In this document: piece after piece, positions 1,334-35,564 of the stretch
How positions within the stretch are numbered: the stretch's first letter is position 1
How the letters are laid out: every line of letters begins with the position of its first letter
Source of the DNA: Escherichia coli
GTDB lineage: Bacteria > Pseudomonadota > Gammaproteobacteria > Enterobacterales > Enterobacteriaceae
Direction: 5' to 3' (one strand)
Length of the DNA: 49,379 nt
NCBI RefSeq assembly: GCF_003334315.1
Contig: NZ_QOWR01000034.1
The notes under the pieces: model-generated
What the model saw: only the letters and a program-made list of their open reading frames with translations
The model's database searches: none
Told to the model about the DNA's origin: nothing
Position numbers and translations under genes: made by a program

Positions 1334-3763
1334 ATGACATTAACAAGACGTGAATTTATTAAACACAGCGGTATTGCCGCTGGAGCGCTGGTGGTGACAT
1401 CGGCAGCACCGCTCCCCGCATGGGCAGAAGAGAAGGGCGGTAAAATCCTCACCGCGGGACGTTGGGGAGCGATGAACGTAGAAGTGAAGGACGGCAAGAT
1501 TGTTTCTTCAACAGGCGCGCTGGCGAAAACCATACCGAATTCCTTACAGTCTACGGCGGCGGATCAGGTACACACCACGGCGCGTATTCAGCATCCGATG
1601 GTGAGAAAAAGCTATCTCGATAATCCACTGCAACCGGCGAAAGGTCGTGGCGAAGATACCTATGTACAGGTGAGCTGGGAACAGGCATTAAAACTGATTC
1701 ATGAGCAACATGATCGTATTCGTAAAGCTAACGGACCATCGGCCATTTTTGCCGGATCTTACGGCTGGCGCTCTTCTGGCGTGTTGCATAAAGCGCAAAC
1801 CTTACTGCAACGTTATATGAACCTGGCGGGCGGTTATTCCGGGCATAGCGGCGATTATTCAACCGGGGCAGCACAGGTGATCATGCCGCATGTGGTCGGT
1901 TCTGTAGAGGTGTATGAACAGCAGACCTCCTGGCCGCTGATTCTGGAAAACAGCCAGGTTGTGGTGCTGTGGGGAATGAACCCGCTGAATACCTTAAAAA
2001 TTGCCTGGAGCAGTACCGATGAGCAAGGGCTGGAATACTTCCATCAGCTGAAAAAATCTGGCAAACCAGTGATTGCCATTGATCCTATCCGCTCCGAAAC
2101 CATCGAATTCTTTGACGATAATGCCACCTGGATCGCGCCGAATATGGGCACCGACGTGGCACTGATGTTAGGGATTGCGCATACCCTGATGACACAAGGC
2201 AAACACGATAAAGTGTTCCTTGAAAAATACACTACCGGGTATCCGCAGTTTGAAGAGTATCTGACAGGTAAGAGCGATAATACGCCGAAGAGCGCGGTCT
2301 GGGCGGCGGAAATTACTGGCGTACCGGAAGCGCAGATAGTCAAACTCGCTGAACTGATGGCGGCGAATCGCACAATGCTGATGGCAGGCTGGGGAATTCA
2401 GCGCCAGCAATATGGTGAACAGAAACACTGGATGCTGGTGACGCTGGCGGCGATGTTAGGGCAGATTGGTACACCAGGCGGCGGTTTTGGTTTCTCTTAT
2501 CATTACTCCAACGGTGGCAACCCGACGCGTGTTGGCGGCGTGCTGCCGGAAATGTCTGCGGCGATTGCCGGACATGCCAGCGAGGCCGCTGATGATGGCG
2601 GAATGACGGCGATTCCTGTTGCCCGTATCGTCGATGCGCTGGAAAATCCTGGCGGCAAATATCAGCATAACGGTAAAGAACAAACGTATCCGAATATCAA
2701 AATGATCTGGTGGGCGGGTGGCGGTAACTTTACCCATCACCAGGATACTAATCGTCTGATTAAAGCATGGCAGAAACCGGAGATGATCGTCGTTTCTGAA
2801 TGCTACTGGACCGCAGCAGCCAAACACGCAGATATCGTATTACCGATCACCACATCGTTTGAGCGCAATGACTTGACGATGACCGGTGATTACAGCAACC
2901 AGCATATTGTGCCGATGAAGCAGGCTGTTGCTCCGCAATTTGAAGCGCGTAACGATTTTGACGTGTTTGCCGATCTTGCGGAATTACTCAAACCTGGCGG
3001 AAAAGAGATCTATACCGAAGGTAAAGATGAAATGGCGTGGCTGAAATTTTTCTATGATGCCGCTCAGAAAGGTGCCCGTGCGCAACGCGTCACTATGCCA
3101 ATGTTTAATGCCTTCTGGCAGCAAAATAAACTGATCGAAATGCGCCGCAGCGAGAAGAACGAACAGTACGTTCGTTATGGTGATTTCCGCGCCGATCCGG
3201 TGAAAAATGCGCTGGGTACGCCAAGCGGCAAAATTGAAATCTATTCAAAAACGTTGGAAAAATTTGGCTATAAGGATTGCCCGGCACACCCAACCTGGCT
3301 GGCTCCTGATGAATGGAAAGGTACCGCCGACGAGAAGCAGTTACAGCTTCTGACCGCACATCCGGCACACCGTTTACACAGTCAGCTTAACTATGCGGAA
3401 CTGCGTAAAAAATATGCGATCGCCGATCGTGAACCAATCACTATTCACACCGAAGATGCTGCACGCTTTGGTATTGCGAATGGCGATCTGGTGCGTGTCT
3501 GGAACAAACGTGGTCAGATTTTGACAGGCGCGGTGGTGACTGACGGGATCAAAAAAGGCGTGGTATGCGTGCATGAAGGTGCATGGCCAGATCTGGAAAA
3601 TGGCTTGTGTAAAAACGGCAGTGCGAACGTGTTAACGGCGGATATCCCCAGCTCGCAGCTGGCAAATGCCTGTGCCGGTAACTCAGCGTTGGTGTATATC
3701 GAAAAATATACGGGCAATGCACCGAAGTTAACGGCGTTTGATCAGCCAGCTGTTCAGGCGTAA
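1334..3763 (+). CDS. torZ: Periplasmic molybdoenzyme, trimethylamine-N-oxide reductase 2 (TorZ/BisZ)
   Basis: Start moved from track ATG 1316 to ATG 1334, which has GGAGG upstream. Twin-arginine signal [15 protein letters not shown], 809 aa, immediately downstream of torY. Confidence 0.93.
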
Positions 3764-3814
3764 GACGTGAATAGCGCCCGGAAACGGGCGCTGAGGTTAT
3801 GCAAACGTAAAGCT

Positions 3815-3912
3815 GCCTGATGCGCTATGCTTATCAGGCCTACATAGTCCCTGCAATATATTGAATTAGCAAGGTTTTGTAGGCCGGATAAGGCGTTCAC
3901 GCCGCATCCGGC
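3815..3912. repeat. BIME: two inverted REP elements between convergent torZ and cmoB
   Basis: GCCTGATGCGCTATGCTTATCAGGCCTACA (3815-3843) and GTAGGCCGGATAAGGCGTTCACGCCGCATCCGGC (3879-3912) match the REP consensus. Confidence 0.8.
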
Positions 3913-3927
3913 AGTAATACCAGACCT

Positions 3928-6075
<2,148 letters not shown>

Positions 6076-13999: not shown

Positions 14000-14320
14000 G
14001 ATTGGTCGCTCGCGCCGCATCCGAAATTGGCAGTGTGCCTGATGCGACGCTATTCGCGTCTTATCCGGCCTACCAGAGATAGCGAACCGTAGCTCGGATA
14101 AGGCGCTCGCGACGCATCCGACATTGGCAGTGTGCCTGATGCGACGCTATTCGCGTCTTATCCGGCCTACGAGAGATAGCGAACCGTAGGTCAGATAAGG
14201 CGCTCGCACCGCATCCGACATTGGCAGTGTGCCTGATGCGACGCTGTTCGCGTCTTATCAGGCCAGCCAGAGATAGCGAACCGTAGGTCGGATAAGGCGC
14301 TCGCGCCGCATCCGACAAAT
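14000..14320. repeat. Tandem BIME cluster: three 97-bp units made of alternating REP palindromes
   Basis: GCATCCGA recurs at 14017, 14114, 14211 and 14308 (exact 97-bp period); each unit holds GCCTGATGCGACGCT...GCGTCTTATC(C/A)GGCC and CGGATAAGGCGCTCGCG REP motifs. Confidence 0.85.
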
Positions 14321-28096: not shown

Positions 28097-28501
<405 letters not shown>

Positions 28502-28527
28502 TGGCTTCTGATAATTCGATTGACCGT

Positions 28528-28612
28528 TGGCGGATGCGGCGCGAGTGCCTTGTCCGCCCCAGAACGCACCACAATCGTAGGCCTGAGAAGACGCAACAGC
28601 GTCGCATCGGGC
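28528..28612. repeat. Degenerate REP pair (BIME-like) in the yebF-yebE intergenic region
   Basis: GGCGGATGCGGCGCGAGTGCCTTGTCCGCC and GCCTGAGAAGACGCAACAGCGTCGCATCGGGC are both REP-like palindromes. Confidence 0.6.
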
Positions 28613-28827
28613 AATCAGCATCAAACAATGCCACTCAAAACGACAAACTACTTTCACCTAAAATACCCTTATCACCTGATATACAGTAAATACCTTACCT
28701 GGCGCGAATTTCTTTGAATAACGGCCTACCGCCCCGCTTATTTGCGCATCTTTTGTCTCGATATACATTTTCTGACATCCTCATCCGCTATGCTACAGGC
28801 ACTAAAAATGGTTATTGAGGAGCAAAT

Positions 28828-29487
28828 ATGGCTAACTGGTTAAATCAGCTGCAATCCCTGCTTGGGCAAAGCAGTTCTTCTACCTCCTCGTCTGCGGATC
28901 AGGGATTGGGCAAACTGTTAGTGCCAGGCGCATTAGGCGGACTGGCTGGGCTGCTGGTCGCAAATAAATCAGCACGTAAACTTCTTACGAAATATGGCAC
29001 CAACGCGTTACTGGTTGGCGGCGGAGCGGTAGCGGGTACGGTGCTGTGGAATAAATACAAAGATAAAATTCGCGCGGCGCATCAGGACGAACCGCAGTTT
29101 GGCGCGCAAAGTACGCCGCTGGATGAGCGTACAGAACGTTTGATCCTTGCGCTGGTCTTTGCCGCTAAAAGTGATGGTCATATTGATGCCAAAGAACGTG
29201 CGGCAATCGACCAGCAATTGCGTGAAGCCGGCGTGGAAGAGCAGGGGCGTGTACTCATTGAGCAGGCAATCGAACAACCGCTGGATCCACAACGCCTGGC
29301 TACCGGGGTCCGCAATGAAGAAGAGGCGCTGGAAATCTATTTCCTGAGTTGCGCGGCTATTGATATTGACCATTTTATGGAACGCAGTTACCTGAATGCA
29401 CTGGGTGACGCGCTGAAAATCCCCCAGGATGTTCGTGACGGCATTGAACGCGATCTCGAACAGCAAAAACGCACTTTGGCGGAATAA
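28828..29487 (+). CDS. yebE: Inner-membrane protein YebE (DUF533, TerB-like C-terminal domain)
   Basis: 219-aa ORF with a Ser-rich N-terminus, one hydrophobic segment and a charged C-terminal domain. Confidence 0.85.
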
Positions 29488-29668
29488 TTCCGCTCTCTGG
29501 ATAGCCTGAAGTTGACTATTTCGGGCTATCCAGAATCGCACAGCCATTTGAACAGGCTGATTTTCTCTGTCTGCATAACATTCGATATCCGCGCCATTAC
29601 CTGTCATCATCTAAGCAATGACTCCCCTGTTTCGCTTGCATCCCCGGTGAGTTTTGCCACCCTTATAA

Positions 29669-32415
<2,747 letters not shown>

Positions 32416-35241: not shown

Positions 35242-35328
35242 AACATTTAAGCTGATGACCACCGCGCTTTTTATTGACCATTTTGCACGCAAACTGGAAA
35301 ACCTGGCGTCGTCATCTATTCTTAAAGG

Positions 35329-35431
35329 GCAAGGCAACTAAGCCTGCATTAATGCCAACTTTTAGCGCACGGCTCTCTCCCAAGAGCCATTTCCCTGGAC
35401 CGAATACAGGAATCGTGTTCGGTCTCTTTTT
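35329..35431 (+). ncRNA. sdsR: Small regulatory RNA SdsR (RyeB), sigma-S dependent
   Basis: Recalled SdsR sequence matches (GCAAGGCAACTAAGCCTGCATTAATGCC...CGGTCTCTTTTT). A sigma-S-type -10 (TCTATTCTT, 35315-35323) sits upstream and a GC stem plus U-run ends at about 35431. Confidence 0.75.
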
Positions 35432-35564
35432 ATCTGTTAAAAGCCAGAAGCATTTCCTTCGCTGACTTTATAGTCAACCATAACACACACTCTACTGTCT
35501 GAGTCCAGCGTTTTTTAACATTCTTGTTAAGATTATGTGATCTTTAGCGCGGAGGAAAATATTG

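Follow-up and report, generated by a model that had tools for sequence, protein, structure and literature searches.

We found that the inverted repeat immediately downstream of yebE in Escherichia coli forms an RNA hairpin, hereafter hairpin 1, that most probably acts as the 3′-terminal, exonuclease-blocking protective stem-loop of the yebE mRNA. This reading follows from a stem that has no U-tract, a mapped and trimmed RNA 3′ end directly behind it, and the C-rich unstructured tract that comes next. Hairpin 1 is therefore real but ordinary as an mRNA 3′-end stability element, and current understanding is unchanged by it. Its value lies in annotation, with a previously unannotated palindrome of E. 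coli K-12 gaining a concrete and experimentally anchored role, and in the possible use of the hairpin as a part for the control of mRNA 3′ stability.

The stretch of DNA that we analysed (the window) comprises 49,379 nucleotides, and positions refer to it unless K-12 is named. At this locus its sequence is identical to E. coli K-12 MG1655 (NC_000913.3) in reverse complement, and window position x was converted to NC_000913.3 position 1929155-(x-29380), reverse-complemented, a conversion that was checked base by base on L082. The yebE coding sequence (28828-29487, plus strand, with the stop codon TAA at 29485-29487) was taken from the ORF list and from the RefSeq annotation of the identical K-12 sequence, where the product is a DUF533/TerB-family inner-membrane protein. 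The same two sources place ptrB, encoding oligopeptidase B, at 29696-31756 on the plus strand. Two further open reading frames overlap the region, one of 60 amino acids starting with TTG (29512-29694) and one of 200 amino acids in antisense (29008-29610); neither is credible, as alignment of the Escherichia species places indels of 1-4 nt within both.

Hairpin 1 occupies 29496-29534 on the plus strand and its first stem base is the 9th nucleotide past the yebE stop codon. The earlier note had described two arms that are exact reverse complements beginning 9 nt after that stop, and direct reading of the sequence confirms this for TCTGGATAGCC (29496-29506) and GGCTATCCAGA (29524-29534), with 17 nt between the perfect arms. 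The 11-bp repeat therefore stands as described, but the 17-nt loop does not. A repeat search gave wider arms of 15 nt with 93% complementarity, and RNA folding in the yebE sense gave a 17-bp stem with two G.U pairs (5′ arm 29496-29512, 3′ arm 29518-29534) closed by the 5-nt loop UGACU (29513-29517). The folding energy is -27.8 to -29.1 kcal/mol (z about -5.8 to -7.5), and none of 200 shuffles folded as well (at -29.1 kcal/mol, z -5.75). On the minus strand folding is less favourable (-25.8), since A.C takes the place of the G.U pairs there.

The inverted repeat of hairpin 1 exceeds chance expectation. When the 49-kb window was scanned for perfect inverted repeats with arms no shorter than 11 bp and a loop no longer than 25 nt, five loci were obtained, compared with 0.28 expected from shuffles. 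Four of the five are canonical intrinsic terminators with an A-run and a T-run, and hairpin 1 is the sole one in the window without a T-run. It is flanked by CCGCTC on the 5′ side and AATCGCACAGCC on the 3′ side, with neither an A-tract before nor a U-tract after the stem, in agreement with the earlier observation that no T-run follows. A terminator and promoter consensus scan called no terminator at or past hairpin 1, and no sigma-70-like promoter on either strand between 28600 and 29900. RefSeq carries no annotation of the hairpin, and an Rfam E-value scan of 28500-30000 returned nothing but noise at its position (mir-4662 at 21 bits, for which the gathering score is 97). A smaller hairpin spanning the stop codon, GCGGAA-UAA-UUCCGC, was dismissed as not conserved among the Escherichia sequences compared.

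A steady-state RNA 3′ end has been mapped at window position 29539, plus strand (K-12 NC_000913.3 1928996, minus strand), in Supplementary Table 3 of Liu et al. 2023 (PMC10667835), a study in which SEnd-seq libraries were re-analysed and mapped to NC_000913.3. C29539 lies 5 nt past the last stem base, A29534, and leaves the RNA tail ...GGCUAUCCAGAAUCGC-3′. In that table the end is labelled ‘ptrB<->yebE UTR’ and appears in two sheets, which give the proportion of ends, that is, reads ending at a position divided by the coverage there. In the sheet ‘PNPase ends in WT’ this proportion is 0.833 in WT and 0.167 in the pnp deletion (log2FC 3.43, FDR 0.041), and in the sheet ‘RNase II ends in WT’ it is 0.833 in WT and 0 in the rnb deletion (log2FC 6.43, FDR 0.0078), with single-replicate pnp and rnb mutant libraries and a low depth at the site (log2 cpm about 4.4). 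Ends that are commoner in WT form the authors’ class of ‘exoRNase trimming stops’, and 1928996 on the minus strand is a row in the stop lists of both PNPase and RNase II. In WT, 83% of the covering reads stop at 29539, a share that falls to 17% without pnp and to 0% without rnb, so that the 29539 end is a trimming stop of PNPase and RNase II. The complete RNase E sheet of the same study does not contain the site and thus gives no indication that RNase E generates the precursor end. The position was known already as a high-throughput table row, encountered among the supplementary-table rows of PMC10667835.

The earlier note had proposed that the repeat is not a canonical intrinsic terminator, a view which these data uphold. 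Hairpin 1 does share with such terminators a stable hairpin a few nucleotides past the stop codon and a protected 3′ end. However, it has no U-tract within 0-2 nt of the stem and no 5′ A-tract, its RNA ends in AAUCGC, and the formation of that end is exonuclease-dependent. The note had further made the hairpin depend on transcript 3′ ends coinciding with it and on arms conserved between species; the first point is borne out by a mapped end 5 nt past the stem, and the second by the conservation described below. Between its two suggested functions, an RNA stability element and a protein binding site, the mapped PNPase- and RNase II-dependent end together with the kept stem favours the former.

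Under the mechanism that we propose, RNA polymerase would pass through hairpin 1, transcript release being not expected there because the U-tract is absent, and transcription would end at scattered positions further downstream, at about 29540-29680. PNPase and RNase II would then degrade the single-stranded tail in the 3′-to-5′ direction until they stall at the 17-bp stem, which would produce the precise mature end at C29539. Hairpin 1 would thus set the 3′ end of the yebE message, and presumably prolongs the life of the mRNA.

The segment that would be lost by trimming (29540-29677, plus strand) is an untranslated, unstructured, C-rich and G-poor tract that we regard, from its C/G ratio and its folding, as a candidate zone of Rho utilisation and termination. 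The 78-nt windows starting at 29550-29600 have C/G ratios of 1.8-2.4, mostly at least 2.0, with the 99th percentile of the whole window at 2.14, and 29535-29640 folds no more stably than its shuffles (z +1.08). Primary termination within the ~150 nt following hairpin 1 would accordingly be Rho-dependent, a step to which we give slightly better than even confidence. Adams et al. 2021 give no minus-strand entry at the site in their table of Rho-dependent ends, and yebE does not appear in the 3′-end tables of that study; the TERMITe and TRS 3′-end datasets held no relevant rows. Our search found no paper tying yebE to bicyclomycin, and no bicyclomycin or Rho-depletion data for the site.

These features resemble those of a described class of transcript ends. 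In the model of Dar & Sorek 2018, Rho-dependent transcripts terminate downstream and are then shortened as far as a protective hairpin that lacks a U-run. Protective stem-loops of this class show precise steady-state 3′ ends right after stable stem-loops, without a U-tract and with C exceeding G downstream; the ends are produced when PNPase and RNase II shorten longer primary transcripts, and those trimmed by RNase II are generally trimmed by PNPase too. The yebE site shares a stable stem (-29 kcal/mol) right before a precise 3′ end, the absence of both U-tract and A-tract, an end trimmed by PNPase and RNase II (literature data, from single-replicate mutants) and a downstream sequence that is unstructured, rut-like and richer in C than in G. 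Of the five features that define this class of stem-loop, hairpin 1 shows four, and the fifth, Rho dependence, we infer. Compared with typical terminator-like stems, the 17 bp of hairpin 1 appear long, although this is an unquantified impression.

An alternative source of the primary 3′ end lies within the downstream tract. A weak hairpin (hairpin 2; CAGCC at 29541-29545, GGCTG at 29555-29559, 9-nt loop) was seen in the RNA folds and is followed by a U-rich run at 29560-29573 (ATTTTCTCTGTCTG; AUUUUCUCUGUCUG), both together occupying 29541-29573 on the plus strand, 7-40 nt downstream of hairpin 1. The two could possibly form a weak intrinsic terminator, so that transcription would stop without Rho at hairpin 2 and 29560-29573 and the tail, hairpin 2 included, would be trimmed back to hairpin 1. 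Hairpin 1 would still be protective in this case, and the upstream step alone would differ. The order of elements, CAGCC/GGCUG and then AUUUUCUCU, is as expected for such a terminator, its stem shows the compensatory form CAGTC/GACTG in locus L002, and trimming by ~30 nt would suit the dependence on PNPase and RNase II. However, hairpin 2 has a stem of 5 bp with a 9-nt loop, its region folds weakly (-5.9 kcal/mol, z -0.58) and the terminator scan makes no call there. Furthermore, in E. whittamii and E1V33 another small hairpin, which lacks a U-tail, takes the place of hairpin 2, yet both retain hairpin 1, and the E. coli strain MEI1A breaks one pair of hairpin 2 without compensation. We accordingly consider this composite terminator unlikely, at roughly one chance in four.

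The protective role of hairpin 1 is also consistent with the way its stem has been kept. When the 138 nt after the yebE stop were compared by blastn with 5426 complete E. coli genomes, each genome matched at a single place, and hairpin 1 is present as a single copy in every one. The segment 29490-29545 is identical in 2657 of these 5426 genomes and the others differ at 1-3 positions. Among five sampled E. coli variants, the sole stem SNPs change G-C to G-U (ST131) and C-G to U-G (MEI1A), both of which keep pairing on the yebE strand alone, and the remaining SNPs of the five are in the loop or flanks. Each of the four other Escherichia lineages sampled forms a homologous hairpin, with a stem of 12-17 bp and a folding energy of -18 to -28 kcal/mol. 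The listed members of the 90% cluster of YebE are from E. coli and Shigella only.

Next we consider the pattern of change within the stem. Over the 14 outer pairs in 11 shallow sequences, 96.8% of cells are paired, and 12 of 500 column shuffles attain the score observed for the alignment. One pair changes from G-C to U-A in E1V33 and E. whittamii, which is the sole double change in the 14 counted pairs and occurs in two sister-like lineages, and three pairs change on one side only, staying G.U or U.G on the yebE strand. An apical change from A-U to U-A, seen by eye and outside the counted register, is likewise compensatory. The outer 2-3 pairs (two basal pairs) are open in some Escherichia lineages, and the loop and flanks vary freely within the genus. 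On the other strand, A.C mismatches would stand in place of the conserved U.G pair and of the pairs with wobble SNPs, which places the constraint on the yebE-sense RNA. The signal is modest but consistent, and suggests selection on an RNA helix in the yebE sense rather than on a DNA operator.

The protein binding site that the earlier note had offered is therefore disfavoured. Such a palindromic operator would have a dimeric regulator on two half-sites controlling ptrB or yebE, and an 11-bp perfect palindrome in an intergenic position upstream of ptrB speaks for it. However, 28 bp separate the centres of the half-sites, and the site is ~95 nt upstream of a conserved sequence block in front of ptrB that other genera share without having the palindrome. 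Base identity is not kept, with the stem covarying instead (G-C to U-A, A-U to U-A), and the conserved T.G together with the E. coli wobble SNPs breaks the symmetry of the DNA while pairing of the RNA is kept on one strand. We regard an operator as very improbable.

To place the hairpin in a wider frame, 80 yebE loci were gathered across the Enterobacteriaceae. In about 70 of the 80 no more than 12-30 nt separate the yebE stop from the conserved block in front of ptrB, and a distance of 140-146 nt is found only in four Escherichia loci of the 80 and in E. coli itself. Hairpin 1 thus lies within a ~120-nt insert that, among the genera sampled, is seen only in Escherichia. Most other Enterobacteriaceae in the comparison have no such hairpin after yebE, which indicates that the hairpin is not essential to the locus, and Citrobacter, Enterobacter and Kosakonia show no strong structure there. 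In Buttiauxella, Cedecea and relatives (L044, L048, L052-L054, L057, L060, L063, L064, L069 and L076), a canonical terminator spans the yebE stop (CTGCCGGGTTAATCCCGGCATTTT), with a stem that encloses the stop codon (CTGCCGGG-TTAAT-CCCGGCA) followed by TTTTCC. The solution for the yebE 3′ end therefore differs by lineage: Escherichia has a hairpin without a U-tract, Buttiauxella and Cedecea have a canonical terminator, and Citrobacter and Enterobacter have neither.

This distribution leads to two further readings of hairpin 1. The first is that it is a selectively neutral by-product of the Escherichia-specific ~120-nt insertion, a stem that stops exonucleases by chance and is not retained for the sake of a function. 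Two facts agree with it: the hairpin is missing at ~70 of the 80 other Enterobacteriaceae loci, those with the stop 12-30 nt from the ptrB block, and the outer 2-3 pairs are lost in some lineages. On the other hand, none of the 5426 E. coli genomes lacks the hairpin, four other Escherichia lineages retain it too, and the stem changes observed are compensatory or wobble-preserving while loop and flanks are free to vary; neutrality is accordingly improbable, with about one chance in ten. The second and still less probable reading is that the whole ~120-nt insert, with the hairpin, the C-rich tract and a block at 29590-29610, was acquired as an insulator or regulatory module, with a further role for the 3′ UTR that the hairpin delimits, or for the tail that is trimmed off. 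If this were true, Cpx-induced transcription of yebE would be uncoupled from the ancient ptrB promoter, and conditional read-through into ptrB or a 3′-UTR-derived RNA would be possible. The block in question, CGCGCCATTACCTGTCATCAT (29590-29610, plus strand), is invariant in all aligned Escherichia intergenic regions. The slightly longer CGCGCCATTACCTGTCATCATCTAAGCAATGAC (29590-29623) is invariant or nearly so across Escherichia, a conservation above that of the hairpin flanks, and holds a small inverted repeat, GTCAT-N10-ATGAC.

The conserved block directly upstream of ptrB, GTTTCGCTTGCAT...TTTTGCCACCCTTATAAG (also GTTTCGCTTGCAT...TTTTGCCACCCTTATAGG), was defined from the 80 Enterobacteriaceae loci and lies at 29629-29669 on the plus strand. 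In the form GTTTCGCTTGCAT-N-TTTTGCCACCCTTATA(A/G)G it is conserved in essentially all 80, and it is a probable ptrB promoter or regulatory region. A SELEX peak for the RpoS holoenzyme has been reported in the ptrB-yebE spacer (PMC5493296). Readings of the block as a sigma-70, sigma-32 or sigma-54 promoter were tried by eye and all fail on spacing. In two Salmonella enterica loci (L015, subsp. diarizonae, and L031, subsp. arizonae) the yebE-ptrB spacer is also long, at 212 nt. The ptrB block there directly adjoins the yebE stop, and the additional sequence lies downstream of the block; these loci represent either an independent insertion elsewhere or a wrong automatic call of the ptrB start.

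We also considered whether hairpin 1 is the relic or end of a mobile element, such as a REP/BIME, a MITE or the subterminal hairpin of an IS200/IS605 element. Its position within a lineage-specific insert would suit this origin, as would the presence of ISEc46 76 nt downstream in ~400 E. coli genomes. ISEc46 belongs to the IS200/IS605 family, carries tnpA and an InsQ/TnpB RNA-guided endonuclease gene, and is found in ~400 of the 5426 E. coli genomes (7%). From the junctions in L081, where the element spans 3232-4998, its insertion point is 29610/29611, right after T29610 and behind the Escherichia-invariant ...CCTGTCATCAT, so that the element sits between the hairpin region and the ptrB upstream block. 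Against a mobile origin, hairpin 1 is single-copy in each E. coli genome at blastn sensitivity and has no Rfam match, its plasmid matches are mis-binned E. coli chromosomes only, and its phage matches are 32-nt chance matches only. With one place per genome and no relatives in Rfam, plasmids or phages, hairpin 1 does not appear to be a REP, a MITE or another dispersed element. The end hairpins of ISEc46 (CCCCGCCC...GGGCGAGG) are unrelated to it in sequence and K-12 has hairpin 1 without the IS, which likewise sets it apart from an IS200/IS605 subterminal hairpin or PATE. On these sequence comparisons a mobile origin is largely refuted, and we give it hardly any credence.

The protective stem-loop reading thus places hairpin 1 beside the REP/BIME 3′ stabilisers, which are also U-less extragenic palindromes that block 3′ exonucleases. 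A REP exists in many copies, whereas hairpin 1 occurs once per genome and does not show the REP consensus, and it is a clean, single-copy and non-REP example of a U-less protective hairpin.

REP-like hairpins do occur on the other side of yebE, where the yebF-yebE gap holds two REP-like palindromes (28518-28631) with sub-threshold naRNA4 matches in Rfam. In the supplementary data of PMC10667835 these hairpins bear RNase II stop sites from the same SEnd-seq dataset, with 3′ ends at K-12 positions 1929972 and 1929918 (window ~28563 and ~28617), and the yebF transcript appears to end there. Elsewhere in the window, Rfam matches at gathering level were obtained for ES036 (CssrF) at 3836-3878, for the REP-derived naRNA4 at 14189-14264, and for the overlapping antisense pair of SraC/RyeA (minus strand) and SdsR/RyeB (plus strand) at 35291-35435. 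Significant entries in a supplementary table of Adams et al. 2021, which we take as the list of Rho-dependent, bicyclomycin-sensitive sites, lie at K-12 positions 1927253 (+) and 1930523 (+), corresponding to ~31282 and ~28012 on the minus strand of the window, antisense to ptrB and yebG respectively. If the table is indeed that list, Rho curbs antisense transcription near yebE and ptrB.
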